Positions 45,632 to 64,000 of a stretch of 64,000 nt of DNA are shown piece by piece. A program made the translations under genes and the position numbers. This DNA is from Elusimicrobiota bacterium. Lineage in GTDB: Bacteria > Elusimicrobiota > Elusimicrobia > UBA1565 > JACRDR01. The notes below the pieces were generated by a model. That model was given only the letters and a program-made list of their open reading frames with translations, had not been told where the DNA came from and ran no database searches. The stretch is from NCBI GenBank assembly GCA_041694815.1, contig JBGFSC010000010.1, positions 1-64,000 on the forward strand. The letters run 5' to 3'. The first letter of the stretch is position 1. The number at the start of each line of letters is the position of its first letter.

Positions 45632-46164
45632 AAGGGTTTACTTTCGTCGAGTTGGTGATCGTGGTCTTCCTGCTCGCGCTCCTGGCCGCCTTCTCCCTGC
45701 AGGGCTACGGGAAGATGTTCGAGAGCAGCAACGCCGAGAAGGCCCGGGAGCTTACTCGGCTCGTCGCTAACTCGAACCGTAACTACGCGCTCAGCCGGGA
45801 AGGCATGCCCTTCTTGGCCGGATCACTCAACGGCTGCGACCCGACCCAGCGCTGCGAGAATTCTCTCGACGCCTGCAGGCTCCTGACCTGCGGCTACCTG
45901 GCCGCGGAGGATTGGACCGGCACCCGATACGATTATTATGCCCTCAATGGCCCGATGACTCTCTGCGGGCTCTCGGGGACGCCTGTCTCCGACCCAAGCG
46001 CCGCGCCACTTTTTGAAGGCCCCTCGGGAAGATTCTACATCGCCTGCGCCAAGCGCCGTTCGGACGCCGGCTCGCCGTACGTGAACTGGGGGTATACCGT
46101 GAATCTCAATGGAGGGATCCAGGCCTGGCCCGCATCCGACCCCCCGCCCCTCAAGCAGGAATAA
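45628..46164 (+). CDS. Type IV pilin-like protein (orphan, Cys-rich)
   Basis: Class III signal MKG|FTFVE plus hydrophobic helix; six Cys. Confidence 0.85.
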   Translation: MKGFTFVELVIVVFLLALLAAFSLQGYGKMFESSNAEKARELTRLVANSNRNYALSREGMPFLAGSLNGCDPTQRCENSLDACRLLTCGYLAAEDWTGTRYDYYALNGPMTLCGLSGTPVSDPSAAPLFEGPSGRFYIACAKRRSDAGSPYVNWGYTVNLNGGIQAWPASDPPPLKQE

Positions 46165-49157: not shown

Positions 49158-49991
49158 GGTGATGCCGCTGGCGGAGATCGCCTCGCGCACGCGGGGGCTC
49201 AGCAGCGTCCGCAATTCCGCGCGGCTCTGATGGCTTTCGGTGGGGGACTCGCCCGCTTCGCTATCCGGGTCGGCGCTCGGGTGGAAATAGATTTCCGTGT
49301 CTCCCGGGGGCAGGCCCTCCAGGAGCCGCAGCAAGTACTCCTCGCTCATGAGCCCCGAGCGTAGCAGGCCATAGGTCCTATCCAGCACGTGTACGCGCGG
49401 GTCGGCGTGGCGCATCATGAGGTAGCGCCTTAAAAGTTGAAACGTCACTGCCTCGCCCAGCTGCTTGAACGGCGACAGCCGGAAGGAAAGGCTCGCCGCC
49501 AGCTCTCCGCCCGGAAGGCGCAGGCGCGTGAAGCCATACTCGCGGCAAAGGCGCGCGAGCAATGGATAGATCACCGGATGCACGTGAAGGTTGACGTGGC
49601 CGTCGACATGCCCCGGGGACAGGCCGAGGGAGAGGAAGCGCTCAAATTGGGCTCGGAGCTCGGCCTCGATCGTCACCCGAAGGGAGCGGTCGAAAAAGTA
49701 GCGCATCCCGCAACGGACGGGGTCCGTCGGGAAGCGTCCGTCGGCGTCCAGCCACCCCCCCCAGCGCACGCGGCCGAGGGCCGAGAGCCCGTTGCATAGG
49801 ACGGCATGGAGGCCCACCCCCAGGCCCGGAAACTGAGAGCGAGCGCGCCGGGCGGCGTCGGCGGCGGCGGGCTCATTGACCATGAGGCTGGCGAAGCGCA
49901 ATATCCCGTTTTGATACGCCTCGAAAACCGCGTCGTTGACCGCCGCCGACTCACCGAAATCATCAGCCGTGATGAAAAGACGCCGGCTCAT
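49041..49991 (-). CDS. YdjC/ChbG/HpnK family deacetylase
   Basis: ITADDFG, ASLMV, VGLH, HVDGHVNLH, EIYFHP; ATG at 49991 overlaps the pilX-like stop. Confidence 0.88.
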   Translation of the reverse strand: MSRRLFITADDFGESAAVNDAVFEAYQNGILRFASLMVNEPAAADAARRARSQFPGLGVGLHAVLCNGLSALGRVRWGGWLDADGRFPTDPVRCGMRYFFDRSLRVTIEAELRAQFERFLSLGLSPGHVDGHVNLHVHPVIYPLLARLCREYGFTRLRLPGGELAASLSFRLSPFKQLGEAVTFQLLRRYLMMRHADPRVHVLDRTYGLLRSGLMSEEYLLRLLEGLPPGDTEIYFHPSADPDSEAGESPTESHQSRAELRTLLSPRVREAISASGITLADAGSVAPVEQESAAGPQQLPRVPHDAEGEALLGGKA

Positions 49992-50410
49992 TGGCATTGC
50001 GCGAGGGTCATGGTCGCTGGGCACGCGTCCCCAGGACCTTTCGGGATGCATACGCAGGTTTTGCAAGTGCCTGGATTAGAAAGGTCGTCGATGGCATAGA
50101 CTCGAACCGGCACATCTGACATTCCGGTAAACGGCAATCCCGCCAACGTGCACGTGCACCCGCACGAACCCGACGCCGGTTGGCAAAGCATATCGGGTGT
50201 ATTTTGACAAATTCCATACTGATTCCATAGGCCCCAGGCGCGGTGCATGACCGCCTGACCCTGTAAAGGAGCCGCGACGGCCCCCGCGTAACGCTCGCCG
50301 AGGCTAATCCGCTGCATCACCATCGACAGCACCGCAGAGGCTACGGTGAGGAGTACCAGCCCGAAGACGAGCACCTGCACCAACGCCGCTCCGCGCCTTG
50401 CCACGTTCAT
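49988..50410 (-). CDS. PilX-like minor pilin
   Basis: RRG|AALVQV (no Glu5, PilX type); ten Cys. Confidence 0.7.
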   Translation of the reverse strand: MNVARRGAALVQVLVFGLVLLTVASAVLSMVMQRISLGERYAGAVAAPLQGQAVMHRAWGLWNQYGICQNTPDMLCQPASGSCGCTCTLAGLPFTGMSDVPVRVYAIDDLSNPGTCKTCVCIPKGPGDACPATMTLAQCQ

Positions 50411-51033
50411 GGGTACGGAGCGCTCCGGCTCATGGAGAGGGTGACGGCGGTGTTGACGGTGACGGCGGCCGTCCCCGTACCGACCATGTAATGCAGCTCG
50501 ACGACATTATTGACATTCGCCGGCCGGATGAAATAATGAGGATAGGCGGGATCCTTCGAGACATGACGGGCTAGGATCAGGGCGTTGGGAGCCGTCGCGT
50601 CGCAGGTGTAGGTGGGAGGGCAGGCGGCGCCCATTCCATCCTGCCACGTCATGTAAAGATCGCCCGCAATGACGCAATATTGGTACGTATGGATGGGAGG
50701 GCCCGCCGGGCCCCGATCGATGCGGGGATCGGTGGGGTTCAAGCCCGAAGAATCGTAGTTCGAACAGCCCCGAAGCATGTCTGCTCCGACCGGGGCAGAA
50801 CCCGCGCAATTGCCGTTAGGGCAGGGCCAGGCCGGGATACTCAAGGAGGTCGTGCGCGCGAGATCCCTCGCGATGGCTGTCGCGCTCATGATGGCGCCGT
50901 CATGGATCACGTCCTTTTGGAAGCTCTGGTTCTGCAGGCGAAACACGGCGGTATAGATAGCCGCCAGTCCCATCAGCACCATCGCCGACAAAAGGACGGC
51001 GACGAGCAGCTCGACAAGAGTGAATCCCCTCAT
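50407..51033 (-). CDS. PilW-like minor pilin
   Basis: MRG|FTLVELL; ATGA coupling. Confidence 0.8.
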   Translation of the reverse strand: MRGFTLVELLVAVLLSAMVLMGLAAIYTAVFRLQNQSFQKDVIHDGAIMSATAIARDLARTTSLSIPAWPCPNGNCAGSAPVGADMLRGCSNYDSSGLNPTDPRIDRGPAGPPIHTYQYCVIAGDLYMTWQDGMGAACPPTYTCDATAPNALILARHVSKDPAYPHYFIRPANVNNVVELHYMVGTGTAAVTVNTAVTLSMSRSAPYP

Positions 51034-51476
51034 GGCTCGTCCCAATCGACGCGAACGTTCACGGTCGGCCGGAAGTTCGGGTCGCCGGGCGGAAAATCGG
51101 CGGTGACCGTATAGATCATGCGCATGTTGTATGGGGGCAGACGCAATGGGGCCGGAAGGAAAGAGCTCACGTCGTGCGGCACGCAGCCGGGGTCCAAGGC
51201 GTAGCGCGGGTAGCAGCTGTCCTGCATGGAGCCGTCCCGGAAACCCCAGTCGCCGCCGGGCGCGTAAGAAGCGGTCGCGGCCGTAGGATCGGCGCTAATG
51301 TAATTTTTGAGTCTTTCCAGGACGCGTTTGGCGGCGTTGGCGGCGGCAATCTTGCGTTCGGCCTTGCCCCCGAGGCGTTTGCTGGTCAAGGTCACGCTAA
51401 AAACGGAAAGGGTGACCATCGCGACGAGCAGGATGGCCACGAGCACCTCGACGAGGGTCGTGCCCCGGGGACCCAT
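51030..51476 (-). CDS. PilV-like minor pilin
   Basis: PRG|TTLVEVL; C-terminal VRVDW. Confidence 0.8.
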   Translation of the reverse strand: MGPRGTTLVEVLVAILLVAMVTLSVFSVTLTSKRLGGKAERKIAAANAAKRVLERLKNYISADPTAATASYAPGGDWGFRDGSMQDSCYPRYALDPGCVPHDVSSFLPAPLRLPPYNMRMIYTVTADFPPGDPNFRPTVNVRVDWDEP

Positions 51477-51477
51477 T

Positions 51478-52017
51478 TCAATAAACCGGCTCGGGCGGGG
51501 CCAGGCAGTCGGAGCAGCCTGGCACGCTCGCGTACACTTTACCGTTCCTGTTGACCGCGTAGCCCCATTCGGATGAGAAAGCGGGCCCTCCGGCGTTTCT
51601 ACGGGCGCAGGCGACAAAGAGATCCGACACCGGAAAGCTCAACCCGCAAGCGCTAGCGCTTACCCCGATCGGAGCGAGCGCCTGGAAAGAATAATATTTA
51701 TGGCCGAAGTCCTGCTTGGCCAGGAGATTGCAGGCCACCAGATCGCAGCCCGGGGGCGAGGGGCTGGCCGCGCCGACGCAGGTGGCGGAATTGCAGTTGT
51801 TATCGATCGGGCCCTGCGTGAAGCGGTTATAATCGACCGCGTACATCCGGTTGGTCGTCGCAATCATCTGTAGCATGGATAAAGCATCGTCGGCGCGGGA
51901 ATTTTCCACCGAACGGTTGTAGAGGGGGATAGCCACCGCCGCGATGATGGCCAGGAGCAGAACCACCACCATCATCTCCACGAGCGTAAATCCGTTTTTA
52001 GCTTGCATCAGCTGCAC
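51478..52017 (-). CDS. Cys-rich pilin (PilE/FimU position)
   Basis: KNG|FTLVEMM...AIP.Y; start GTG 52017 or ATG 52008. Confidence 0.85.
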   Translation of the reverse strand: MQLMQAKNGFTLVEMMVVVLLLAIIAAVAIPLYNRSVENSRADDALSMLQMIATTNRMYAVDYNRFTQGPIDNNCNSATCVGAASPSPPGCDLVACNLLAKQDFGHKYYSFQALAPIGVSASACGLSFPVSDLFVACARRNAGGPAFSSEWGYAVNRNGKVYASVPGCSDCLAPPEPVY

Positions 52018-52107: not shown

Positions 52108-53784
52108 TTAATCGTTAATGATCGTGGGCGTGATGAAGATGACGAGATCGGTGTTTTTCCGCTCGACCTGGGTGCTGGTGAAAAACCAGCCGAGTATCGG
52201 GATGTATCCCAATAAAGGCACCTTGCGTACGCTCTTGATCTCCTTCGACTGCAAGAGCCCCCCCAGCACGATGGTTTGCCCGTTCTTGAGCCGGAGCAAG
52301 GTAGAGGCCTTGCGTTCGATCGGGTCCTTGACACCCTTGATGAGGTTAGAGCCGGTCACGTCGGTAAAGGAGGGCTCCACCAGCAGCGTGACATAGCCCT
52401 CCTTGTTGACCTGCGGCGTGACGTTCAACACGAGGCCGGTCTCGATGCGCTCGACCTGTATCGTCGACACCTGGCTGGTGCCCGTCAAGCCGGTCGTCGT
52501 GACCTGCGATACGGCCTCCCGGGTAGTAATCTCGATGGTGGCGCGCTTATTGTTGAGCGTGAGCACCTTGGGCTTGCCCAGGAAACGACCCTCCCCCCTC
52601 ACGATGATCGCCCGCAATAGCACCGTGAGCTGTTCCAAGCTCAGTTTCGCCGGCGTCAGCACGCCGATGCCGCTGGTGCCCGCCGCGCTCGAGCCGCTGC
52701 CCAAGCGGTCCAACGGATGGGTATGGCCCAGATTCTTGGGAAGATTGAGCGGGAAGCTGGTGGTGCGCGCCCCGCCTGTAAATTGCGCCAGCTCGCCGGC
52801 GGATCCGCCCCATTCCACCCCCAACTGCTGCATGCGGCTGGAATCGATCTCCACGATCTGCGCTTCGATCATTACCTGAGGGACCTTTTTATCTAGCTCC
52901 GCGATGATTTGTTCGACCTGCGGGAAAACCTCGGGGATGTCGGTCACGATCAAGGCGTTGCTGCGCGGCTCCAGCGTCACCGAGCCGTGGGGAGTGAGGA
53001 TGCCGTTGAGCACGTTGAGGATGGCGATGGGGCCGTCAGTCTTGCTGGCACTCCCGTAGGTGCCGACGCCGCCCCCCTTGCCCCCGCTGATCGTTCCGCC
53101 CGGGATCTGCCCGCCGGACAAGGCGCTTCCCGGCATGGCGAAGCCTCCCATGCCGCCCATGCCCATTCCCATCCCCATCCCCATGCCCATGCCTGCCTCC
53201 GGACCGGCCGTTTCCAGAGGGACCAGCGGGATGTAGTTGAGCGTATAAATCCGCGTAATGCGGTTGGGACCCTTTTCCGAGCTTTTGCGGATCACGAAGG
53301 TATTGCTGCGGCCCAGCTGATGGTAGGTCATGCCCTTGACCTCCAAGAGGATCTGCAGCGCTTCCCGCACGGTCACGTTTTGCAAGGAAGCCGTGACCTT
53401 CACCGCCGAGAGGCCCTCGGTGATGATGAAATTGAGCTTCGACTGCGCGGCGATCGAATCCAGGAATACGGCCAAGGGCGTCTCGCGGACGCGGACCGTC
53501 ACGCGCGTCTCAAGGGGCGGGGTGGGCGGCGCCGCGGGCGCTTCCGCCGGGGCGATCTGCACTCCTTGCGCCCGCTGGATCGAGGGAGCCGAAGGAACGT
53601 CCAAGGGGCGCCCTGCCGGGGCCTCACCCTGCACTTGGGACTGGAACTCCGGATTGGGTTCCGGCTCGGCTCGCTGCCTCTGGGCCCACGCGGTCGAAAG
53701 AGGAGTCCCCAACACGTGGAGGGCCCAAAGCGCGGCCGCCGGCAGGGCCGCCTTGCGAATCTTGTAACACTTGGATGTCTTCAT
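52108..53784 (-). CDS. pilQ: Type IV pilus secretin
   Basis: STN-like domain, SNALIVTD, QVMIEAQIVE, NVTPQV, VPLLGYIPILGWFF, IFITPTI. Confidence 0.92.
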   Translation of the reverse strand: MKTSKCYKIRKAALPAAALWALHVLGTPLSTAWAQRQRAEPEPNPEFQSQVQGEAPAGRPLDVPSAPSIQRAQGVQIAPAEAPAAPPTPPLETRVTVRVRETPLAVFLDSIAAQSKLNFIITEGLSAVKVTASLQNVTVREALQILLEVKGMTYHQLGRSNTFVIRKSSEKGPNRITRIYTLNYIPLVPLETAGPEAGMGMGMGMGMGMGGMGGFAMPGSALSGGQIPGGTISGGKGGGVGTYGSASKTDGPIAILNVLNGILTPHGSVTLEPRSNALIVTDIPEVFPQVEQIIAELDKKVPQVMIEAQIVEIDSSRMQQLGVEWGGSAGELAQFTGGARTTSFPLNLPKNLGHTHPLDRLGSGSSAAGTSGIGVLTPAKLSLEQLTVLLRAIIVRGEGRFLGKPKVLTLNNKRATIEITTREAVSQVTTTGLTGTSQVSTIQVERIETGLVLNVTPQVNKEGYVTLLVEPSFTDVTGSNLIKGVKDPIERKASTLLRLKNGQTIVLGGLLQSKEIKSVRKVPLLGYIPILGWFFTSTQVERKNTDLVIFITPTIIND

Positions 53785-53800
53785 CGCGCTCCTCCGAGAT

Positions 53801-54388
53801 TCATTTCAATCGCTTGGCGAAGGTCTTACCCTTAAATTTGAAAATCACCGTATTCTGCAGTATCTTCTCGACCCTCACCCCGTTGCTAAGGCTCTGCCCC
53901 TCCCTCAACACCTGGTCATTGACGATGGCCAGCCGGGCGCTTTGGGTCAGCGTGATCCCCTGGAGCCTAACCTTTTTCTCTATGGCCGGAGCCTGGACCT
54001 CGCCCGCCAGGCCGAGCTTGCTCCTCAATTCATTGGTGCGCGCGAGTTTGGATTCCTGCGGGGAAAGGGTGGGGTCGCGGCGAAACGGCGGGGCCTTCGC
54101 CGCTTCCGGGGGCGGCGGTGCCGGAGGAGCGGAGACTGCCGGTGCCCTCGGCGCCTCCTCCTGCCGGGCCAAGGCAACCGTCGAAGAGACTGTCAGTACG
54201 GGCGCGGACATGGGGTTGGGCAGTTTCGCCGCCATGGCCACTTCGCCGAACACGGGTCCGCCGGATGGTTTTCGCGCCGCCTCCTTGGGGCGGGAGTCCA
54301 ACGCGTTCCACCAATTCCAAAACATCACGGCCGGAACGAGTAAGGCGAGGGCCAGCAAAAGCCATCCCATCTTGCCCTTGGGATTCAT
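53801..54388 (-). CDS. PilP/GspB-like pilus accessory protein
   Basis: N-terminal TM, Pro-rich linker, RDP, C-terminal LQGI...AIVNDQVLREG; between pilO and pilQ. Confidence 0.65.
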   Translation of the reverse strand: MNPKGKMGWLLLALALLVPAVMFWNWWNALDSRPKEAARKPSGGPVFGEVAMAAKLPNPMSAPVLTVSSTVALARQEEAPRAPAVSAPPAPPPPEAAKAPPFRRDPTLSPQESKLARTNELRSKLGLAGEVQAPAIEKKVRLQGITLTQSARLAIVNDQVLREGQSLSNGVRVEKILQNTVIFKFKGKTFAKRLK

Positions 54389-54975
54389 CGCGCCGCTCCC
54401 TCTTTCGGTACCGCCGAGGCGACACTGATCGTCACCTCGTTGATTCCCGACTCGCGCTCGTCCTTGCGCAAGTTGAGCTTCGAGACATGCAGGAGCTTGG
54501 GCGAGTTCTCCATACGGGAGATCCACGAGGAGAGCTGGGGATAGCCGACCCGGCAGGTCACCGTCAAAGTCATGATGCGGAACTGGTTCCATTCCAAACG
54601 CGCGATTGGGGAAAGGGACGTGGACAATATGCCCTCTTCCTTCATCGAATCCCGCACGGCCGCCAATAGCCAATTTTCGGGATTCTCCGCGGGCGGAAGG
54701 CTCTCCGAAAAATTCTTGAGGCGTGCCTCGAGCTCCCGGTATCCGTCCACGTAACGAGAGGCGCCCCGGACGGACTCGAGGCTGCCGCGCACCCGCGCCA
54801 GTTCCGAACTCCCGCGGACATAAGCCAACTGATGGCTTGCCAGGAGAATCGCACCTGAGAGGGCCAGGGCGCGGGCGTAGCGCCGCAGGCCTCTCTCGCG
54901 AAGGGCGCTGACAATAATCTCGGCGTCCGACAACGCCGCCGCGATGGCCTCCTGCAATTTCTGTTTATCCCGCAT
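54385..54975 (-). CDS. pilO: PilO-like protein
   Basis: TM, coiled coil, LP..., YPQLSSWISRMENSPKLLHV. Confidence 0.75.
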   Translation of the reverse strand: MRDKQKLQEAIAAALSDAEIIVSALRERGLRRYARALALSGAILLASHQLAYVRGSSELARVRGSLESVRGASRYVDGYRELEARLKNFSESLPPAENPENWLLAAVRDSMKEEGILSTSLSPIARLEWNQFRIMTLTVTCRVGYPQLSSWISRMENSPKLLHVSKLNLRKDERESGINEVTISVASAVPKEGAAR

Positions 54976-56560
54976 TTTTTCTCCCAGCGCTGCATTGGAT
55001 CGTAAAGCGAGTGCGGGACTTTTCTTTGCCAGCCTCGGAACCCGAGACCGCAGCCTCCACGGACTTAAACACCGCTCGGAAACGCTCGTCGCCGTAGAGG
55101 GTGTCGCGAAATCTATAGGCGATGTCCTGTTCGCTAATCTTATTGTCCGCCCATACGTTGCCCGAGAGGGTCAACAGATGCTTGGCCCCGGCGCCATCCG
55201 TCAGCGCCTCTTCCAATGGGTGCGTGTATTCAATCTGGGTCAACCAGGCCTCGCGGGGGATATCCTCAGACAACTGCTCGAGGAGACCGCTAACCCTGCT
55301 TTTTCTATCGGCCAAATACCGAACCGAATCCGCGCGCCTTTGCAGCTCGTTGACCATTTGCTCGATCGCCTCGAGCTTCTTGCCCTTGAAAGCCTCGGGC
55401 ATATTACCGCGCGTCAAGCGGCGCAGCTCCTGAGACTGGGCCCGCGCCCATGCCAGGCGGCCCATCCCCAAGCAAAACAGCAATGCGGCTACCGCCGCCG
55501 ACGAGGCGATGACCGTCCGGACCACCTTCCTGTCGATCGCATCTATTTTTCCTTCAGTGGCCAGATCGAGGAGCACGGCGTTGGGTTTGAGAGCGCGCAG
55601 GGCGGCCCCGAGGGCCGCGTACCCCCCCCATTCGCCGGCTTTAAGCCCCAAGGCCTTCGCCGGGTCCTGGAGCGAAACGGGCGAGCCGGCCTCCTGCGCG
55701 AAGGCCTCGCGCCAGAGGTGGAGCTCGGGGTTGGAGCCGCTCACGCGTATCTCGGGAGGCTTTTGAACCCCTAATTGCTTTTGGGCGAACTCCAGGCAGC
55801 CCGCCAAGTCGAGCTTGCGCCGATCGGCCACCTTGGCGTCCGGGCCAAGCAGAACTTCGCGCACGAAGACGGGGATCCCCTTCTCGGAGATCAGCACGTG
55901 GACGTTGTCGCTGTCAAAGTGGACCTGCGCGTACGGAATGGGGCGGCTGCCGCCCAGCTCGTCCCAGAGGCGGCCCACGGAACACGGGGACAGTTCCAAA
56001 CCGGCGAGCTTAAGACCCAGCTTGGATATCAGCGCGCGCACATTCTCCAGGTTCTTATTTTGGGTGACACCGTAGAGCGCGCCCTGTCGGGGGCGCAGGT
56101 CCGGTCCAGGCTCCAGGGACCGGATTTGGAAATCGCTGGCCAGGTCGTCGAATTGTACCGGGACGTATTTTTTGGCCTCGGCCGGAACGGCCGTCTGCCA
56201 ATATTTAGCATCGATCTTGGGCATCATAAAGTAACGCAGCAGCCCGAAGTGATGCGACAGCGTGACCACCGCATGGCTCGAGCTCCATTTGCCCTGGGCC
56301 ATGGCCTGCCTGATGAGGGCCGAGAGCCGTTCGGTATCCGCCAAGATATCCGTGCTCAAGACGCCAGTCATGCGCGTCTCGTTAGCCGCGTTCGAAGGAA
56401 CGGCCAGGCGCACCAGATGCTCGACGACAGGCTTACCTCCCTTAAGTCGCAGCTCCGCGACGAATACCGCCTTGGAGCTCAGATAGATCCCGACGCAGGA
56501 GTCCAGTTTCGGGAGCGATCTCCCGAAGGCCAATTGGTCCACCAATTCGCTAAATCCCAT
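54965..56560 (-). CDS. PilM-PilN fusion protein
   Basis: Actin-like PilM part (VGIY, EAKKYVP, ALGAALR), TM, then PilN part (LSEDIPREAWLT, LTLSG). Confidence 0.75.
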   Translation of the reverse strand: MGFSELVDQLAFGRSLPKLDSCVGIYLSSKAVFVAELRLKGGKPVVEHLVRLAVPSNAANETRMTGVLSTDILADTERLSALIRQAMAQGKWSSSHAVVTLSHHFGLLRYFMMPKIDAKYWQTAVPAEAKKYVPVQFDDLASDFQIRSLEPGPDLRPRQGALYGVTQNKNLENVRALISKLGLKLAGLELSPCSVGRLWDELGGSRPIPYAQVHFDSDNVHVLISEKGIPVFVREVLLGPDAKVADRRKLDLAGCLEFAQKQLGVQKPPEIRVSGSNPELHLWREAFAQEAGSPVSLQDPAKALGLKAGEWGGYAALGAALRALKPNAVLLDLATEGKIDAIDRKVVRTVIASSAAVAALLFCLGMGRLAWARAQSQELRRLTRGNMPEAFKGKKLEAIEQMVNELQRRADSVRYLADRKSRVSGLLEQLSEDIPREAWLTQIEYTHPLEEALTDGAGAKHLLTLSGNVWADNKISEQDIAYRFRDTLYGDERFRAVFKSVEAAVSGSEAGKEKSRTRFTIQCSAGRKNAG

Positions 56561-56561
56561 C

Positions 56562-58307
56562 CTATTCCCTCGCCGCGACAATGAAGACCTGCACCTCGTA
56601 ATTCTCCCCTTCCGCCACCTTGGACTGTATCTCGATGCGCTTGGGGTCGACCCCGTACTTATTCACCAGCAGTGCGGAGACCATCTCAGCCCGGTTGCGG
56701 GCCAACTCCGAGGCCCCAGTCTCGCTCGAACCAGCGTAACCGACCAGTTCGAGGCCCTCGCGGGGATAACGCTCTAAGACCTCCGCTAGGCGGGTCACGG
56801 TCTGGTCTCCTTCCGCCGACATCTGCTGCGTCCCCTTGGCGAAAGCGATCTTATAGCTCACTGTGCCAATGGTCGCGGCCGCGGGAGCGGCCGGGGTGCT
56901 GTCACTGCTTCCGGCGACCGCCGCCGTGGGCGCCGCCCTGGGCAATACGGTCTTGACGAAACCGGGCCGGGGCTTGGTCGCTATATTTTTGGCCTTCCTC
57001 TGACCGCGGACTGCCGGCAGATTGATCTGCGCATCGTAGAGGCGTCGCGGGGCAGCTTTAACCGCGGGGGGTGGCTTGGCGGGCTGCGTCGACACCGAGA
57101 CCACCGACGCCCCCTCCAAGCTGATCCAGCGATGGAGCGTCCGGGTGCGGTTACGGGCATCCGTGGCGCTCAATACGGCTTCATAGCGCCCAGGCGCCAA
57201 GTCTTGCCCGAAATAGCTCTTCTTGCCGTTCCAAAAGATTTGGTGGAAGACCGGAGCGGTCCCCACCACCTCCTGTAGAGGCCTCAGGCCCCCGGCGGCG
57301 CCCGCGCTTTGCCGGAGCTGGAATTTCCATGACATCAAGCCCGCGGGAGGTTCCTGGATGGAAAATTCGATGATCGCCCCTTCCCCACGATCCCCCCGAA
57401 ACCTTTCCGGCCAGACCCCCAACGAAATAGGAGGGCCCGATTCGTCAAAGGTGACCGCATCCGTGCTGAGAGTCAACGGTTGATTATAGGTAAAAAGGAC
57501 AATGATGCCGCGAAAATCGGCCAGGGCCTTGGGCAGATCGACCTGGGAGAGAAGGAGGTTCACACGCACCCTGGCCGGGGAAATCCCCGAAACGGTCAGG
57601 TGGGAGCTGATGCCCATCGTGCGGCGCATGTCGAGGATCTTCGTTTCCCCGGTGGAAAGTCCCTCGGGAAGGATTGAGACCTGCGTTCCTCCCAGATTGT
57701 AGACCAGGCCGGTTAGGCTCTTGAGCATCGCTAGCGCCGTTTTCTTGAAACGGATGTCCTTGTCGAAGAAAAGGGAGGTAGGGATCCCCAGAGCCCGCGG
57801 GTTTTGCGAGTCCGCCATAACAATGCGGATTTCGGGATGATTCTCCAGCTCAGCCAAGAATCTTCGGACCTGCTCGCGGATCTTCAGCTCGATCTCCCTC
57901 TTCATCACCTCCCGCCGGTCCTGCGACGGCTCCAGGCGCGCCTTGGGCGGGGCCGGCCGCGCTACGGTCGGAGGCGCCAGGGGTTTTTGGCCGACGATCG
58001 GCGGGTGTATGCTCGCGCCGGAGTACATGCGCTGGGTGATAAGGTTCAAGTAATCGTTGGCCATGGCGCGTTCGGACGGTTCGCCGCTGGAAAGCACTTC
58101 CATGAAATGATCCATCGCCTCCGAGTCCTTGCCCTGGTCATAGGCCCTTATGCCCGCCTGCATCGTCTTGCTCAGGCCCGCCCCGACGTATTCCTCGCCC
58201 GGGCTGGGCGGATTCGCTCCCGCTCCCGATAGGGCGAGCGCTAAGACCGCGCAGAATGCCGCCGTCGGGCGCCGCAGACGCCCGCCGGAGGCGAAAAAGG
58301 CGTTCAC
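56562..58307 (-). CDS. Multi-domain OmpA-family periplasmic protein
   Basis: Signal peptide, TPR-like helix pair, degenerate OmpA-like domain, FlgD-Ig-like domain (WNG...PGRY), C-terminal OmpA domain (LVGYA...LARNRAEMV). Confidence 0.75.
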   Translation of the reverse strand: MNAFFASGGRLRRPTAAFCAVLALALSGAGANPPSPGEEYVGAGLSKTMQAGIRAYDQGKDSEAMDHFMEVLSSGEPSERAMANDYLNLITQRMYSGASIHPPIVGQKPLAPPTVARPAPPKARLEPSQDRREVMKREIELKIREQVRRFLAELENHPEIRIVMADSQNPRALGIPTSLFFDKDIRFKKTALAMLKSLTGLVYNLGGTQVSILPEGLSTGETKILDMRRTMGISSHLTVSGISPARVRVNLLLSQVDLPKALADFRGIIVLFTYNQPLTLSTDAVTFDESGPPISLGVWPERFRGDRGEGAIIEFSIQEPPAGLMSWKFQLRQSAGAAGGLRPLQEVVGTAPVFHQIFWNGKKSYFGQDLAPGRYEAVLSATDARNRTRTLHRWISLEGASVVSVSTQPAKPPPAVKAAPRRLYDAQINLPAVRGQRKAKNIATKPRPGFVKTVLPRAAPTAAVAGSSDSTPAAPAAATIGTVSYKIAFAKGTQQMSAEGDQTVTRLAEVLERYPREGLELVGYAGSSETGASELARNRAEMVSALLVNKYGVDPKRIEIQSKVAEGENYEVQVFIVAARE

Positions 58308-58378
58308 CGCCTTACTTTAACCCCTAAAGGGTTAATGGGTTATTTCGGGGCTGTTAAAAAGTTATTAACAAACCGGCC

Positions 58379-58837
58379 TTATTGCCTGAGTGCGGAACAA
58401 GGGTCCGAGGGATCGCCGCAATTGCCGCCACTGAAGACGAAGGAGTCCTGGCAGCGGTCGTAGGTCAGGCGGTAGAGCCCGAAGGTGTCGGAGACGCCCG
58501 CGTTGGTCGTGCGGCGGTCCATGATGATCGTATAGCAGGTATTGTTGCCGCCCAAGCTCGGGGTGTAGTTCCTCAAGCCGTAATTGGTCCCGTTGAAGAT
58601 GATGTCCAACTGCGGTAGGTTGCTGATGTTGGAGATATAGGCGCCGTTGCGGGCCATGTGCCGCTCTTGCGCGGAGCGCACGGCACTGATGAAGTCATAG
58701 GCTTCGCTGACGCGCGAGCGCTCGACCACCTTAAAGTATTGCGGGATGGCGACCGAAGCCAGGATGCCTATGATGAGCACCACCACCAGCAGCTCGATGA
58801 GCGTAAATCCTTGCGAACGTCTGTTCTTGCGGGTCAT
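58379..58837 (-). CDS. Type IV pilin (probable major pilin)
   Basis: SQG|FTLIELLVVVLIIGILASVAIPQY; strong GAGGAGG RBS. Confidence 0.9.
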   Translation of the reverse strand: MTRKNRRSQGFTLIELLVVVLIIGILASVAIPQYFKVVERSRVSEAYDFISAVRSAQERHMARNGAYISNISNLPQLDIIFNGTNYGLRNYTPSLGGNNTCYTIIMDRRTTNAGVSDTFGLYRLTYDRCQDSFVFSGGNCGDPSDPCSALRQ

Positions 58838-58848
58838 CGTTGCCCTCC

Positions 58849-60066
58849 TCAATGTGTCCCGATCTGCGACAGTTGGAATATCGGCTGGAAAATCGACATC
58901 ACGATCACCCCGACGATCGCGCCGATGAAGACCACCATGATCGGGTCGATCATGCTGGTGAAACGCCGGACGAACTGGTCGACCTGCTCCCGGTAAAAAG
59001 CCGAGAGGGTGCCCAAGATGTCCGGCAACTTGCCCGACTCCTCTCCCATCCACATCATTTCCGTGATCAGCCCCGGGAAAACACCGGACTTCTTGAAGGA
59101 AACCGCGATGGCCTTGCCGCTGGCCACATCGTTACGTACCCCCTTGAGCGCCTGCTGGAAGATGAGGTTATCCGCGAATACTCCCTCCAAGACAGAGATG
59201 GCGTTGAGTATGCTGACACCGCTTTCCACCAACGTCGACAAGGTCGACAGCAGACGCTCCAAGAGTATATTCTTTATGAAATTGCCGAAGAAGGGCAGGC
59301 CGAACAGGAATTCCGCCTTCGAGCGCTGGCCTGATTGGGTCATCAGGTATCCCTTGATTACGAAGCAGACGGCTAAAACCCCCAAAAGGATGCTAGGAAG
59401 GTTATAGACCAGGCTCGTCGAGATGAAGATGATGGTCTGGGTCAAAACGGGCAGTTTGAGATTGAAGCTTTTGAAAATCTCGGCGAAGGTCGGCACGATC
59501 TTGAGGATGAAAAAGGTCAGCACGCCGACCGAGATGGTGCCCAGGACGGCGGGATAGGCGAGCGCCGTGACGATCTTGGCCTTCATCTCCTCCTGGGACT
59601 GGATGTAGCGCGAGAGCTGTTTAAGCGTCTTCGGCAGTTGCCCGCCCATCTCCCCCGCTTGGACCAGGGAGATCCATAGCGAGTCGAAGATGTGCGGATG
59701 CCGCTCGAGCGCCTTATAGAGCGCCGAGCCGCTGGCCACCTCCTTGGTCACGGCGACGATCGCTTCCCGCAGCACGGGGCTTTCGGAGTGCTCGCCCAAT
59801 AAGGATAGGGTTCGGACCAGAGGCACTCCGCCGTTTAACAGGGTGGCCAACTGCTCGGCGAAAAAGGCAAGGTCGCGCCCGCCGACGCCGGAACGCTTCA
59901 AGAGAAGCTGACTGAGGCCTTTGGCACCGGTGTCCGATCGCAAGGAAAGGATGAAAAATCCTTTGGATTGCAGGGAGGTGATGGCGGAATTCTCGTCGGC
60001 CGCGTCCAGGACTCCGGAGGTAGTGTCGCCCCGGCTATCCTGGACGGTATAGGCGAATTTGCCCAT
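58849..60066 (-). CDS. pilC: Type IV pilus platform protein
   Basis: QLATLLNGGVPL, AGEMGG, ALAYP, GEESGKL, PIFQL. Confidence 0.95.
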   Translation of the reverse strand: MGKFAYTVQDSRGDTTSGVLDAADENSAITSLQSKGFFILSLRSDTGAKGLSQLLLKRSGVGGRDLAFFAEQLATLLNGGVPLVRTLSLLGEHSESPVLREAIVAVTKEVASGSALYKALERHPHIFDSLWISLVQAGEMGGQLPKTLKQLSRYIQSQEEMKAKIVTALAYPAVLGTISVGVLTFFILKIVPTFAEIFKSFNLKLPVLTQTIIFISTSLVYNLPSILLGVLAVCFVIKGYLMTQSGQRSKAEFLFGLPFFGNFIKNILLERLLSTLSTLVESGVSILNAISVLEGVFADNLIFQQALKGVRNDVASGKAIAVSFKKSGVFPGLITEMMWMGEESGKLPDILGTLSAFYREQVDQFVRRFTSMIDPIMVVFIGAIVGVIVMSIFQPIFQLSQIGTH

Positions 60067-60080
60067 CGTTTTTTAGTGTA

Positions 60081-60704
60081 TCAGGAGCCTCCGACACTGT
60101 CAAGGCGGGTAATTTTCGCCTGGAGTTTGAGGAAGCGACGCCGCAAATCCTCGTTTTCAACTTTAAGCTCCTTGATCGCCTCGATTAATAAAGCCTCCAC
60201 CCCCTCCTTATGGAGCCACCGATAGCCCTCGGTATCCGTCTTGACCCATGCAGGTATAACACCCTCGACCTGTTGCGCCAATAGGCCCATGTGCTCACCC
60301 TCAAGTCCCTTCATCGGCTTGCGCCATTCAAATTTCACGCCATTAAGCCGAACCACCGTATTGAGGGCGGAGGAAAGTGGCCGAATATTCTTTTTGAGCC
60401 GCTCATCGGAAAGGTTTCCCCAAACCCCCGTACTATTGCCTGCTGTTCCCATGACGTGCAATTGCGCGCCTGGATTAGTGGTTCCAATGCCAACACTTCC
60501 GCCATCACGCACCAGAATCGTATTCGCGTTGCCCCGTCCAACCGTCACGATCTGGTTGTATACCCCGCTCGGCGCCGGATAGCTCGTGACCAGCGTTAGG
60601 TTCTCGGAGCCGAGCCCCAAAGGAACGAGCATTACGGCCGTCGCGAGCAGGACGCGCGCAGCACCGGTGTCGAAACGAATCGAGAAGCGTATCTCATGTA
60701 CCAT
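60081..60704 (-). CDS. Exported tail-fibre-like protein with peptidase S74 chaperone domain
   Basis: Hydrophobic leader, ENLTLVTSYPAP, VGIGTTNP, SDERLKKNI...GLLAQQV...LIEAIKEL coiled coil. Confidence 0.88.
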   Translation of the reverse strand: MVHEIRFSIRFDTGAARVLLATAVMLVPLGLGSENLTLVTSYPAPSGVYNQIVTVGRGNANTILVRDGGSVGIGTTNPGAQLHVMGTAGNSTGVWGNLSDERLKKNIRPLSSALNTVVRLNGVKFEWRKPMKGLEGEHMGLLAQQVEGVIPAWVKTDTEGYRWLHKEGVEALLIEAIKELKVENEDLRRRFLKLQAKITRLDSVGGS

Positions 60705-60756
60705 ATTCCCTCCCAGGAAAGTTGAGAAAGTGTAGAAAGTGGATACCTGGCACCGT
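60577..60756. repeat. Direct repeat copy 1 (leader plus N-terminus of fibre gene)
   Basis: Matches 61247-61426 with 7 mismatches in 180 bp by manual alignment; period 670 bp. Confidence 0.95.
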
Positions 60757-60762
60757 TAGGCG

Positions 60763-61374
60763 TCAAGGACAGGCACAATTACCCGAGGCGTCCGGCTCGC
60801 TGGCGCACTTACTGATCTCCCGGTTCGCATTCAAGCAGAGGGCCCCTCCCGTGGGCGGCCCCGCGTTGACACGGATCTTTCCAGCAACGTCGAACGGCGC
60901 GGCGGGGTTGCTAGTGCCGATACCGACCCAACCGTTGCTTTGCTTCAAATAAATTTGGTTAAAGTGCCCGTTCGGATAGGTCCCGAGAATCAAATCAGCG
61001 GGAGTTCCGCTGATCGCGTCGGAATAAATGCGCAAGGCGCCACCGATAGAGTCCACCTTGATCGCCGTATTGGCATTTCCGACCATCGATCGGAACGATG
61101 CCCTGCCGACCACGTCTAGCTTGGTATTGAATCCGTTGCCGGGATTCGAGATGCCGACGCCTACCGCTCCATCGGTACGCGCCAGGATCGTGTTTTCCCC
61201 CCCGTTGCCCACGGTGACGATCGAGTTATAGACCCCGGCGGGCGCGGGATAGCTCGTGACCAACGTCAGGTTCTCGGAGCCTAGTCCCAAAGGAACGAGC
61301 ATTACGGCCGTCGCGAGCAGGACACGCGCAGCACTGGTGTCGAAACGAATCGAGAAGCGTATCTCATGTACCAT
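60763..61374 (-). CDS. Exported tail-fibre-like protein with 4-Cys C-terminal tip
   Basis: ATG 61374 with GGGAGG RBS; same N-terminus as 60081-60704; VGVGISNP and VGIGTSNP repeats; ends CLNANREISKCASEPDASGNCACP. Confidence 0.85.
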   Translation of the reverse strand: MVHEIRFSIRFDTSAARVLLATAVMLVPLGLGSENLTLVTSYPAPAGVYNSIVTVGNGGENTILARTDGAVGVGISNPGNGFNTKLDVVGRASFRSMVGNANTAIKVDSIGGALRIYSDAISGTPADLILGTYPNGHFNQIYLKQSNGWVGIGTSNPAAPFDVAGKIRVNAGPPTGGALCLNANREISKCASEPDASGNCACP

Positions 61375-61426
61375 ATTCCCTCCCAGGAAAGTTGAGAAAG
61401 TGCAGAAAGTGGATACCTGGCACCGT
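61247..61426. repeat. Direct repeat copy 2
   Basis: See copy 1 (60577-60756). Confidence 0.95.
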
Positions 61427-61432
61427 CGGTCT

Positions 61433-63181
61433 CTATTCTCCCGCGGTAACGGCCAGCACTTCCTCGGGAGTGGTGACACCCTCAAGCACCTTGCGCCAGC
61501 CGCTGGCGCGCATGCTCCACATGCCGGAGCGGCTCGCCGCCTGCCGGAGCTTGGAAACGTCGCCGCCATGCTTGTAGATGATCTCCCGAAGCTCCGGGGT
61601 GATAAAATAAATCTCGTAGATGGCCTTGCGGCCGTAGAAGCCGGTCTTGCTGCACTTGTCGCAACCTTGCTCCCTGTAAAAATTGATGGAGGAGGCCGGC
61701 GGCGGGTTGGCCAACATGGATTCCCGGATACACTGTTCGAATAGGGCCGGATCGGGACGGTATGGTTTTTTGCAATGGGAACAGAGCACGCGGACCAGCC
61801 GCTGGGCCGCGGTTAGGCAGAGGCTCGAGGAGAGCATGAAAGGCTCGATGCCCAAATCGATGAGGCGCGGCACCGCCTCCAGCGCGGAATTGGTGTGCAG
61901 GGTCGAAAGCACCAAGTGGCCGGTCAGCGCCGAGCGAAGGCATATCTCGGCGGTCTCCTGGTCGCGCACCTCGCCGACAAGGATGATGTCGGGGTCCTGG
62001 CGCAGGAACGAGCGCAGGGCGCTGGCGAAGGTCAGGCCGATGTTGGAGCGCACCTGCACCTGATTAATCCCGTCGAGCTTGAACTCGACGGGATCCTCGA
62101 TGGTCATGATGTTGACCTCGGGGGTCTTGACGGTATCGAGCACCGTATAGAGGGTTGTCGTCTTTCCCGAGCCCGTGGGACCCGTCAGGAAAATCAGGCC
62201 GTGCGGGAATTGCGCCGCGCGAAGCAGGTCTTCCTTCTGCCTCGGCTCCAAGCCCAGTTTGTTGATATCGAGCGTCGCCTGGCCCTTGTCGAGGATGCGC
62301 ATGACGACCTTTTCGCCAAACACCGTCGGGCAGATCGAGACGCGCAGATCGATGTTGCGGTTCTGCAGCTTGAGGATGATCGCCCCGTCCTGGGGAAGGC
62401 GTTTTTCGGCGATGTCGAGTTTGGCCAGGATCTTGATGCGGCTAACGATGGCCAAGAACAGGTCCCTGGGAGGCGGCTGCCGCTCGTGCAGGTCGCCGTC
62501 GATGCGGAAGCGCAACGTCACTCGCTCATCGTAGGCCTCCAGATGGATGTCGGAGGCCCGTTCGGCGATCGCCTGCTTGAGAACGGCATTTACGAAGGTG
62601 ACGACCTGCGCCCCACGCGCCTCGATGATCTCCTTGTCCAAATCCAGCCGCGAGTCGGAGGTGTCGACCTCCTGGACGTCGCCCGCCTCGGTGCCGGGCT
62701 TCTGCATGGAACGCTCGATCAAGTCGGAGCCGCCCGAGTAGAACTCGTCGATCGCCTTGAGTAATTGGCCTCGCGCGGCGATGAAAGGTTGTATCTCGTA
62801 GCCGGTCAATATCCGCAGATTATCGAGCACCATCATGTTCTCGGGATTGGCCATGGCGACGGCGAGCAGGCGGTTGTCCTCGAGGAACAACGGCAGCACG
62901 AGATTGTCGCGCGCGAAGCGCTCGTTGACCTTGCTCTCTAATTTTTGGCCGCGCTCGGCGCGCAGCACCTTGTTTTCCCGGGAAGCGAAGGGAATGTTCA
63001 TCTGCTTGGAGACGGCCTCGGCGATCTTCTCCTCGCTGGCAAATCCCAGTTTGACGATCGCTTCCCCTAATAGGCAGCCCGCCTGGGCCTGGGTCTTGAG
63101 GGCGCGCGCGAGCTGCTCCTGGTTGATAACGCCGTTTTGTACCAGGATGTCACCCAGGCGCAGCTTTTGCATTTTTGCCAT
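61433..63181 (-). CDS. pilB: Type IV pilus assembly ATPase
   Basis: MshEN motif RLGDIL...LLGEAI, ASDIH, GPTGSGKTT, LRQDPD, CSHC/CDKC. Confidence 0.95.
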   Translation of the reverse strand: MAKMQKLRLGDILVQNGVINQEQLARALKTQAQAGCLLGEAIVKLGFASEEKIAEAVSKQMNIPFASRENKVLRAERGQKLESKVNERFARDNLVLPLFLEDNRLLAVAMANPENMMVLDNLRILTGYEIQPFIAARGQLLKAIDEFYSGGSDLIERSMQKPGTEAGDVQEVDTSDSRLDLDKEIIEARGAQVVTFVNAVLKQAIAERASDIHLEAYDERVTLRFRIDGDLHERQPPPRDLFLAIVSRIKILAKLDIAEKRLPQDGAIILKLQNRNIDLRVSICPTVFGEKVVMRILDKGQATLDINKLGLEPRQKEDLLRAAQFPHGLIFLTGPTGSGKTTTLYTVLDTVKTPEVNIMTIEDPVEFKLDGINQVQVRSNIGLTFASALRSFLRQDPDIILVGEVRDQETAEICLRSALTGHLVLSTLHTNSALEAVPRLIDLGIEPFMLSSSLCLTAAQRLVRVLCSHCKKPYRPDPALFEQCIRESMLANPPPASSINFYREQGCDKCSKTGFYGRKAIYEIYFITPELREIIYKHGGDVSKLRQAASRSGMWSMRASGWRKVLEGVTTPEEVLAVTAGE

Positions 63182-63256: not shown

Positions 63257-64000
63257 TTATTGCCCGAGGCTTTGCAGCCACTGCCGGGCGTGGGCGTTGC
63301 CCGGATCGGAGGCGAGCACGGCGCGGAAGGCGGCGGCCGCCTCCTGGCGGCGCCCCACCTTGGCCAGCGCCTGGCCGAAGCTTAATTGCAGGCTGGCGTT
63401 GCCGGGCTCGGCGCGGACCAGCGGGGCCAGCATTTCGACAGCCGCGCCGGGATTGCCGGCCACCAGTTCTAGATTGGCCGCGTAAAAGCGCATCTTCGGC
63501 CATTTCGGAAAGGTCTTGGCCAGATCCCGAGCCATTTGGACGGTGCCGGCCGAGAAATCCTTGCGCCCGATACGCGCCTCGAGCTCCTTGTAGCGGGCCA
63601 CCTCGCGCAAAATGGAGGGCGGTGCGATCTTGGCGCGATCGGCGGCGGAGCGGAGATTAAGCTCCGCTTGCGAGAGCTCCGGATTGGCCTCCAACGCCCG
63701 CGCCCAGACCCGCGAGGCGCCCGAGAAATCGCCTCCCGTCGCTAGGAGATAGCCTAGATTGTTGAGGAAACCGACGTCCTCAGGGAAAAATCGCAGGGCC
63801 GTCCTCAGGGACTCGATGGCCTCGGTCCTGAAACGGGCCGGATCGCGTAGGTAGAGGCGGTTGAGATTGACATAGAGCTCGTAAGAGATCGGGTTGATAA
63901 GGGCTGAAACCCGGTAGAAGCCGAGTGCCTCCTCCCAGCGGCCCAGGCGCGCTCCGAGCACCGTGCCCATGTTGAAGTAGATCTCGTCGTAGCCCGCGTT
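63257..64000 (-). CDS. TPR repeat protein, C-terminal part (5' end outside window)
   Basis: Frame open to 64000 (NAGYDEIYFNMG...); TPR motifs LNNLG, ALEANP, VLASDPGN. Confidence 0.8.
   Translation of the reverse strand, partial: NAGYDEIYFNMGTVLGARLGRWEEALGFYRVSALINPISYELYVNLNRLYLRDPARFRTEAIESLRTALRFFPEDVGFLNNLGYLLATGGDFSGASRVWARALEANPELSQAELNLRSAADRAKIAPPSILREVARYKELEARIGRKDFSAGTVQMARDLAKTFPKWPKMRFYAANLELVAGNPGAAVEMLAPLVRAEPGNASLQLSFGQALAKVGRRQEAAAAFRAVLASDPGNAHARQWLQSLGQ

Follow-up and report, generated by a model that had tools for sequence, protein, structure and literature searches.

Short phage-like fibre genes in an Elusimicrobiota type IV pilus operon belong to a large unnamed family that may provide exchangeable pilus-tip adhesins

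Among the described systems closest to the genes discussed here are the PilY1/PilC adhesins of type IVa pili and the mosaic MAT fibres of Bdellovibrio. In type IVa pili, the ~ten residues that end PilC/PilY1 complete the sheet of the minor pilin PilK/PilX and license assembly, and PilK-type pilins lack Glu5 (PMC13533445, in the portions covered here). Self-cleavage by an S74 domain has been demonstrated for a MAT, and the MAT passages covered here report no linkage to pilin genes, name interplay with the type IV pilus only as an open question and give the anchor as unknown (PMC10769870). Here we describe two adjacent genes, A and B, located between pilB and pilC in a type IV filament operon of an Elusimicrobiota bacterium (GenBank assembly GCA_041694815.1, contig JBGFSC010000010.1, positions 1 to 64,000). 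This whole stretch of 64,000 nucleotides, referred to as the window, is the start of contig C44 in the source genome (G000, 2.77 Mb, 98% complete).

Genes A and B are members of a large family, so far without a name, whose short and phage-like fibre proteins combine a constant front with very varied tips, and this family may serve to equip pili with exchangeable tip adhesins. To us the chances appear about even that A and B are short homotrimeric fibre adhesins of this Elusimicrobiota family, standing in PilY1's place on type IVa pili and docked through their N-terminal module. An earlier sequence-only reading of the window had likewise proposed a conserved N-terminal module with interchangeable tips that is tied to the pilus. 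The size of the family, the diversity of its tips and, in relatives, its linkage to the minor pilin genes pilV, pilW and pilX (collectively VWX) speak for this idea, but the position between pilB and pilC does not.

The module family and its linkage to minor pilin genes

A profile of 40 N-termini, run on 40 relatives, returned 113 matches in 36 of them, with 1-13 per genome and often in tandem. The module consensus consists of a short beta-like stretch, R-R, a hydrophobic helix and L-x-S, followed by E-x-x-TLTTYYPAPSGVY. A later profile of 91 rows, built without the VGIG repeat, yielded matches to 4,913 representatives at E<=0.001 and to 979 at 1e-10; these 4,913 module-bearing protein clusters come mainly from Elusimicrobiota, and the named members are from Elusimicrobiota metagenome-assembled genomes (MAGs). 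Among the best 150, selected by score, E occupies position +1 in 150/150, S position -1 in 140 and L or V position -3 in 145. The conserved L-x-S/E motif is presumably a signal-peptidase site, which would give the family a MAT-like beginning, a signal peptide (its cleavage site taken from the motif) followed by a constant N-terminal part.

Beyond the module the proteins diversify, and both S74 and non-S74 variable tips are found on fibre repeats. Fetched loci provided 164 module genes: a VGIG-like repeat is present in 103 of them, at least four cysteines within the final 120 residues in 118 and the S74 motif in 3. A set of 145 tips forms 78 clusters. A Pfam scan of 100 of the best 150 representatives left 95 without a match, the others matching S74 (1), Gp34_trimer (1), He_PIG (1) and, in the fibre part, Shufflon_N (2). 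The module itself (91 members) shows no significant family in Pfam, NCBIfam or the PDB, the proteins' N-terminal 85 aa have no match among 50,697 phage records, and an ESM Atlas search with the module yielded unnamed clusters only. Nor did we find a description of the module family in the literature, surveyed through titles and the beginnings of abstracts, with subscription papers and bioRxiv supplements outside its scope. Within a sample of the phylum the module is present in 29 of 201 genomes, all of the same class. A pattern scan of named genomes with a single protein returned three loci, two of them from an Omnitrophota MAG, a scan that is insensitive and does not define the family's range. 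The two Omnitrophota loci (L151:5977-6822 and L153:2917-3141) carry a TTYYPAPAGVY module, one of them right after an nrdR-like gene, and have no pil neighbours. Longer members of 500-700 aa were also seen: one genome (G104, L169-L171) has five copies in which at least the first 100 residues are near-identical and the Cys-rich ends unrelated, and another (G163, L167) has four tandem copies, several of which end in a chaperone-like coiled coil.

The genomic context of the module was tallied from six-frame searches with V, W, X and module profiles, covering 85 stretches over module matches and 16 around further pilW matches. A module gene lies beside pilV, pilW or pilX (~1.5 kb) at 27 of 88 module loci, in 21 of the 40 relatives and in three families. 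Of these 27, 26 were counted by the 1.5-kb cut-off, including one in tail-to-tail arrangement, and the remaining one (L204) has a weaker module match 35 bp from pilV. At 22 of the linked loci the genes are co-oriented with a gap of <=78 bp. Two gene orders recur, V-W-X followed by one to four modules, which is the slot of PilY1, and one to three modules followed by V-W-X. Seen from the pilins, 17 of 54 pilW matches belong to main operons and 37 lie elsewhere, and a module adjoins 25 of these 37, against a chance expectation of ~0.1 of 54 as estimated from locus density with kin that are not independent. Three linked loci (L200, L203 and L204) were found from the pilW side and are absent from the building of the module profile. 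No PilY1-sized gene adjoins any of the inspected VWX clusters. In the small-genome family f4 a pilin-like gene lies within ~1.1 kb at 2 of 4 loci, a weak association since pilin genes are numerous there.

At four of the loci (L131, L145, L146 and L147) two short chains (~120-140 aa) and a long one, with diverged modules, directly precede V-W-X. Such conserved clusters of up to three modules (L131:6457-7951, L145:6267-8024, L146:4755-6435 and L147:3635-5315) are candidates for a heterotrimeric tip, and L174:4780-6871 and L204:2681-4761 are of the same class. They usually lie near genes that, from their translations, resemble those for extracytoplasmic function (ECF) sigma factors, anti-sigma factors and secreted proteins.

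Genes A and B in the pilus operon

The operon runs along the minus strand, where all features of the operon given below are located, in the order pilB, pilC, pilin, OmpA-domain gene, pilM-, pilO/GspM- and GspB-like genes, secretin, pilin and three minor pilins. Gene A (60763..61374) and gene B (60081..60704) lie between pilB (61433..63181; assembly ATPase, T2SSE E=7.6e-135) and pilC (58849..60066; platform protein, T2SSF match). The 203-aa product of gene A comprises a leader (residues 1-33), the module from E34, VGVG and VGIG repeats and a four-Cys tip; the 207-aa product of gene B comprises leader, module, a single VGIGTTNP repeat, a short stalk, an S74 chaperone and a coiled coil. Both carry ENLTLVTSYPAP, followed by AGVYN or SGVYN. 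The Peptidase_S74 domain of gene B (aa 99-155, SDERLKK motif) maps to 60240..60410 (E=1.2e-14), and gene A has no significant match in Pfam or NCBIfam. The fibre segment of gene A (~aa 69-190; 60805..61170) is 50-57% identical to internal parts of longer, unrelated fibre proteins, and the module is present in 0 of the 14 longer fibre proteins that match residues 69-190. An N_methyl (prepilin) match is found in neither gene, and PF05567, the C-terminal beta-propeller, matches neither A nor B nor any of 100 family members, proteins that are too short for one.

The two genes contain one direct-repeat family (219 nt, 92% identity, 670-bp spacing). A near-identical 180-bp block of 52 upstream bases and ~43 codons, with the ATG at position 53, is present as copy A (61247..61426) and copy B (60577..60756) and spans a short repeat discussed below, the ribosome-binding region, the leader and, in copy A, ENLTLVTSYP. 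The block stops abruptly at the YPAP codons. On the 5' side of the YP codons A and B are identical at 111/117 bases and 33/39 codons, with five synonymous changes and one replacement, whereas on the 3' side they are identical at 71/111 bases and 11/37 codons. Over the same 3' stretch A and B match a third paralogue, on contig C23, at 76 and 71 of 111 bases, respectively. Since the 3' similarity between A and B is no higher than that of each to the C23 paralogue, the 5' ends were homogenised recently. A and B are a mosaic pair, whose 5' ends, brought into agreement by partial duplication or conversion, meet older 3' halves at a conserved motif. Scattered, mostly synonymous differences between the copies, followed by their divergence, make an assembly artefact unlikely. 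Similar 5' ends (0.88-0.90) combined with dissimilar middles (0.35-0.57) are also seen in pairs at L092, L106 and L167; most other within-locus pairs are older.

The third paralogue (G000:C23:22453-23001, plus strand) encodes 182 aa with a Cys-rich tip, has a GC content at third codon positions (GC3) of 0.81 and lacks the short repeat. It is flanked by genes that, from their translations, look like a thioesterase and a signal peptidase. The source genome also has a second class of fibre, three long VGIGT-repeat open reading frames (ORFs; ~1140, 1180 and 550 aa) at C52:102641-109653 and C15:33024-34838 that lack the module.

Much of the sequence-only reading's description of the locus withstands this analysis: gene calls and a repeat search bear out the two genes of 670-bp period between pilB and pilC, an alignment reproduces the 180 shared bases with exactly 7 mismatches, and the S74 domain is indeed in one gene and the second VGIGT repeat with the four-Cys tip in the other. 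The two cassettes it described are real, but the genome has a third module gene in the C23 paralogue. That no PilY1 follows the minor pilins also stands, pilX being followed by a YdjC gene that is not PilY1-sized. A composition richer in A/T was correctly noted for the variable part of gene B (GC/GC3 0.534/0.59) and barely applies to that of gene A (0.585/0.69), the ten pil genes measured having 0.575-0.642/0.67-0.83.

The sequence-only reading counted 52 upstream bases within the shared 180 bp. They are shared, but ~38 of them are a genome-wide repetitive extragenic palindromic (REP) element that blastn matches on many contigs. The copy ahead of gene A (61387..61424), a single arm located 8 bp past the pilB stop, marks the start of the repeated unit, and the other copy (60717..60754) lies ahead of gene B. 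In the source genome the 20-base core of the REP (<=2 mismatches) has 63 copies at 38 loci, with 23 inverted pairs, and the genome's only Y1_Tnp (RAYT) gene (C15:53872-54195) is an intact ORF between inverted REP copies (G000:C15:53761-54770). The single REP copy has no hairpin beyond that of shuffled sequences (z = 0.09). Among the other-genome loci up to L189, the core has one match (L134), which is not at a module gene.

A location between pilB and pilC is not a conserved feature. Around the best pilC matches in relatives 39 stretches were fetched, of which 36 contain both pilB and pilC, and a module gene lies between the two in 0 of these 36 related operons; the notion of a conserved pilB-pilC cassette was rejected on this count. 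In the homologue search that had been proposed as a check, the linkage to pil genes is found beside VWX and not here. In 34 of the 36 operons pilB and pilC are adjacent, and in the other two (G002 and G005) an unrelated membrane protein of 650-700 aa lies between them. In one genome of another family (G204, L162) this position is occupied by a module gene. A sigma70-like site, TTGACA-17-TACACT, precedes pilC and overlaps the last codons of gene B (60075..60103; consensus match only), and a similar site precedes pilC in 19 of 33 scored related operons, as raw consensus matches uncorrected for chance. An insertion upstream of such a promoter-like site would spare the downstream genes, so the pilB-pilC junction probably tolerates insertions.

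The rest of the operon, from pilin and OmpA-domain protein through the pilM-like, pilO/GspM-like and GspB-like genes (T2SSB E=1.9e-10 for the last) to the secretin, occupies 52108..58837 according to domain matches. The pilV-pilW-pilX-like core minor pilins (49988..51617), recognised by domain and V/W/X profile searches, are followed by the YdjC gene. The pilX-like pilin (window 49988-50410) has ten cysteines, four above most relatives, and a short additional C-terminal segment. Outside the operon a lone prepilin-like gene immediately follows uvrA (window 45628-46164). Two genes upstream of pilB (window 63257-64000, G000:C44 to 68334) encode long, TPR-ending membrane proteins that are kept at this place in many relatives and possibly resemble O-antigen-ligase-like pilin glycosylation proteins. 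The unrelated proteins encoded before pilC in relatives (L031:6542-8668, L032:86-2056 and L046:3963-6113) are multi-pass membrane proteins of 650-700 aa with a TPR-like end, presumably similar to GT-C glycosyltransferases and perhaps pilin-modifying. Just beyond the window, at G000:C44 ~70600-75500, lies a second type IV filament cluster whose translations resemble GspL/K/J/I/H/G/F of a proteobacterial-type type II secretion system (T2SS).

Possible docking and display, and competing explanations

How might such proteins reach a pilus? The chain would be exported by Sec and cut after L-x-S, as motif conservation suggests, leaving E34 at the N-terminus, and would then trimerise. S74 domains fold trimers and remove themselves from them, and that of gene B would likewise fold the trimer and then cut itself off. 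The mature-chain model of gene B (mean pLDDT, the predicted local distance difference test, of 85.6) matches the folds of the intramolecular chaperones 7dc3, 3gw6, 3gud and 4uw8, and on the sequence level there are hits to solved fibres of phages and Bdellovibrio, one of them with VGIG repeats (8jov, 6f45 and 8ojn). By homology of its S74 domain gene B is firmly predicted to form a trimer, and the repeats of gene A suggest the same for that protein. The processed gene B chain would be ~65 aa long. Since S74 would remove the C-terminus of gene B, only the N-terminus could serve as its anchor. The module being the sole conserved part of the fibre genes that neighbour VWX, the mature N-terminus would be what docks on PilV-PilW-PilX, and the source genome's presumed docking partner is the set at 49988..51617, the sole pilVWX set found there. 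Thus, E-x-x-TLTTYYP-x-P-x-G-x-Y would bind the PilV-PilW-PilX tip complex, probably by lending a beta-strand to the small PilX sheet, as PilY1 does with its C-terminal strand, though here the strand would come from the other chain end, and the pilus would carry the variable C-terminal tip to the surface. On an evolutionary time scale the repertoire of tips would grow as genes duplicate, recombine homologously within their conserved 5' part and take up fibre segments from other bacteria. In the source genome, the REP-headed pair would sit at an insertion-tolerant site before the pilC promoter and probably be co-transcribed with pilB.

The third pilin in the V-W-X order, PilX, lacks Glu5. It is modelled as a long helix with a three-stranded sheet (sheet pLDDT 63-69), and a fold search with this model, which covered the helix alone, returned coiled-coil helices only, with Z below 5. 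A profile comparison revealed no similarity between module and PilX. A complex prediction for PilV, PilW and PilX of the co-operonic cluster L080 with the 50-aa mature module, each supplied with an alignment, scored 0.32 (runs 0.32, 0.16 and 0.38), with 0.00 and 0.01 for unrelated partners and 0.31 when PilW was replaced, and we use it neither for nor against binding. Likewise, PF05567 had no match in any of 41 genomes but equally none in any of 14 controls, hence this search is uninformative on the presence of PilY1.

Several observations weigh against docking on pili. An unrelated membrane-protein gene precedes pilC in three genomes of the same family (including G001), the source genome's own A and B lie 9 kb from VWX, though in the same operon, and the C23 paralogue is without pil neighbours. 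Of the 88 module loci, 61 (some of them at contig ends) have no VWX nearby, and a module within 1.5 kb is missing from all 17 main-operon VWX sets and from 12 of the 37 other pilW loci. Family f5 has 73 module matches, of which only 4 come within 4 kb of pilW, three of these tail-to-tail. Four of the 40 relatives have pil genes and no module match; three of the four are f1 drafts of 79-91% completeness, and in one of them (G002) a diverged module was later seen. Part of the seeds of the V/W/X profiles came from module-adjacent clusters, so that such clusters are more readily detected. Moreover, for an adhesin the processed chain of gene B would be very short, and strand donation is known from the C-terminus, the portions of PMC13533445 covered here describing no donor at the N-terminus.

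A different scenario is that A and B form surface fibres independent of the pilus, miniature counterparts of the Bdellovibrio MATs that use another envelope receptor or keep the leader as membrane anchor, their proximity to pil genes reflecting co-regulation and a tolerant site. The many unlinked loci, the near absence of linkage in f5, and a pilB-pilC junction that takes in unrelated genes ahead of a pilC with its own promoter-like site would all fit, as would the succession of signal peptide, constant N-domain, fibre and S74-or-other tip, which is the MAT plan in the covered parts of PMC10769870. We nevertheless regard this scenario as unlikely, since co-regulation alone hardly accounts for gaps of <=78 bp to pilV or pilX at 22 loci, spread over three families and two gene orders, and a module is carried at 25 of the 37 accessory pilW loci. 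Perhaps instead the filament is a T2SS-like machine and the fibres its cargo, with VWX acting as a GspIJK pseudopilus tip that reads the module as a signal, and with trimers that are pushed through the secretin and then released or re-bound. The GspB-family and GspM-like genes of the operon are in keeping with such a machine, which predicts the very same linkage to VWX and for which many unlinked copies would suit a family of substrates. However, it is unusual for T2SS substrates to be encoded together with minor-pilin sets of their own, whereas dedicated clusters of VWX and adhesin are typical of type IVa pili, and the source genome has a separate, canonical-looking T2SS cluster at G000:C44 ~70-75 kb (as labelled from translations). 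Secretion cargo thus strikes us as a still less probable role.

A programmed switch of tips, shufflon-like or of the kind driven by diversity-generating retroelements, perhaps through RAYT acting on the REP copies, is very improbable. It could draw on the abrupt end of the near-identical 5' block at the YPAP codons, on the pairs of L092, L106 and L167 that are alike at the 5' and different at the 3' side, and on the fact that every unit begins at a REP in a genome with an intact RAYT. Against it, each of the two genes is complete, has a start of its own and lies in direct orientation, and recombination within a direct repeat would delete or duplicate a unit rather than swap tips; moreover, the single REP match among the other-genome loci up to L189 is not at a module gene. 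A repeat search detected no inverted arms around the tips of A and B, and blastn of the cassette found no silent tip cassettes or template repeat in the source genome. Contig C44 as a whole has no match to a tyrosine recombinase, resolvase or reverse transcriptase (7, 1 and 2 elsewhere in the genome), which extends what the sequence-only reading had stated for the window. Past exchange of tips at the YPAP codons is supported by the mosaic pattern, but ongoing or programmed swapping, with no arms, silent tips or recombinase at hand, is not. Nothing supports a programmed shufflon for A and B, given that C44 has no Rci, that there are no invertible partial ORFs between sfx sites and that the adhesin is no prepilin. 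A diversity-generating retroelement was rejected as well, blastn having found no tip template in the genome and both reverse transcriptases being on other contigs, and so was a prophage remnant, there being no phage context and no phage match while a leader is present.

Docked trimeric fibres in the place of PilY1 remain our preferred reading. A bolder extension of it, which we consider doubtful, is that PilY1 has been replaced throughout the class by thousands of trimeric fibres that plug into PilVWX through an N-terminal strand with reverse polarity, and that module-module-module-V-W-X clusters make heterotrimers. If so, the reverse polarity would free the C-terminus for exchangeable tips and autocleaving chaperones, and three diverged modules could each fit one face of the asymmetric pilin tip. 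Docking of this kind would constitute a second way of mounting an adhesin on a type IVa pilus and unite phage-type trimeric fibres with the pilin initiation complex. It would give a function to ~4,900 clusters of hypothetical proteins, a handle on what free-living Elusimicrobiota bind and a testable answer on how the MAT fibres of Bdellovibrio are anchored, and a 30-residue module that loads arbitrary trimeric tips would be a useful display tag. Even without docking, the module provides a new family of markers, and the appearance of the locus is accounted for by the findings on the REP and the promoter-like site.

Comparison with known systems

Phage tail fibres and spikes (T5 pb1 4uw8, K1F endosialidase 3gw6, 8jov and 6f45) resemble the proteins described here in the S74 fold, the SDxRxK motif, the VGIG repeats and the mosaic segments, and differ in that ours are encoded on the chromosome outside any phage context and begin with a signal-peptide-like leader. 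The repeat at their head recalls the REP/REPIN-RAYT systems (PMC3337134 and 10.1101/119735, in the parts covered here) as a short intergenic repeat that occurs as singlets and inverted doublets, with a single Y1 transposase gene flanked by inverted copies. At our locus, however, both copies are single arms that head duplicated genes and have no hairpin of their own.

The shufflon-encoded PilV of IncI plasmids is similarly a type IV pilus adhesin with a constant N-terminal part and exchangeable C-terminal tips (PMC9045228, in the passages covered here). However, it is a pilin whose tips are inverted by Rci at sfx sites, whereas A and B lack a prepilin motif, a nearby recombinase and an invertible segment, and vary as whole-gene copies. 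Bdellovibrio MATs share with them the signal peptide, the constant N-terminal part, VGIG-type repeats (8ojn and 8ond), S74 and non-S74 ends, mosaic tips and presence in multiple copies, but measure ~1000 aa with a beta-rich N-domain of 130 aa, as opposed to ~200-300 aa with a module of ~30 aa (PMC10769870, in the passages covered here).

With PilY1/PilC, as described in the covered portions of PMC13533445, the likeness is one of position and role. Both are non-pilins, exported by Sec in the case of PilY1 and presumably so here, disulfide-rich and endowed with a variable part that is adhesive in PilY1 and putatively so here. Their genes lie beside pilVWX (PilIJK), those of the module family at 27 of 88 loci in relatives, and the partner PilX, a presumed one in the case of the module, lacks Glu5. 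The proteins of the module family differ in having no beta-propeller, in their size of ~200-300 aa compared with 1000-3500 aa, and in their predicted build as trimeric fibres rather than monomers. The conserved candidate docking strand here is at the mature N-terminus, and the C-terminus, from which PilY1 donates its strand, is the variable, cleavable tip.

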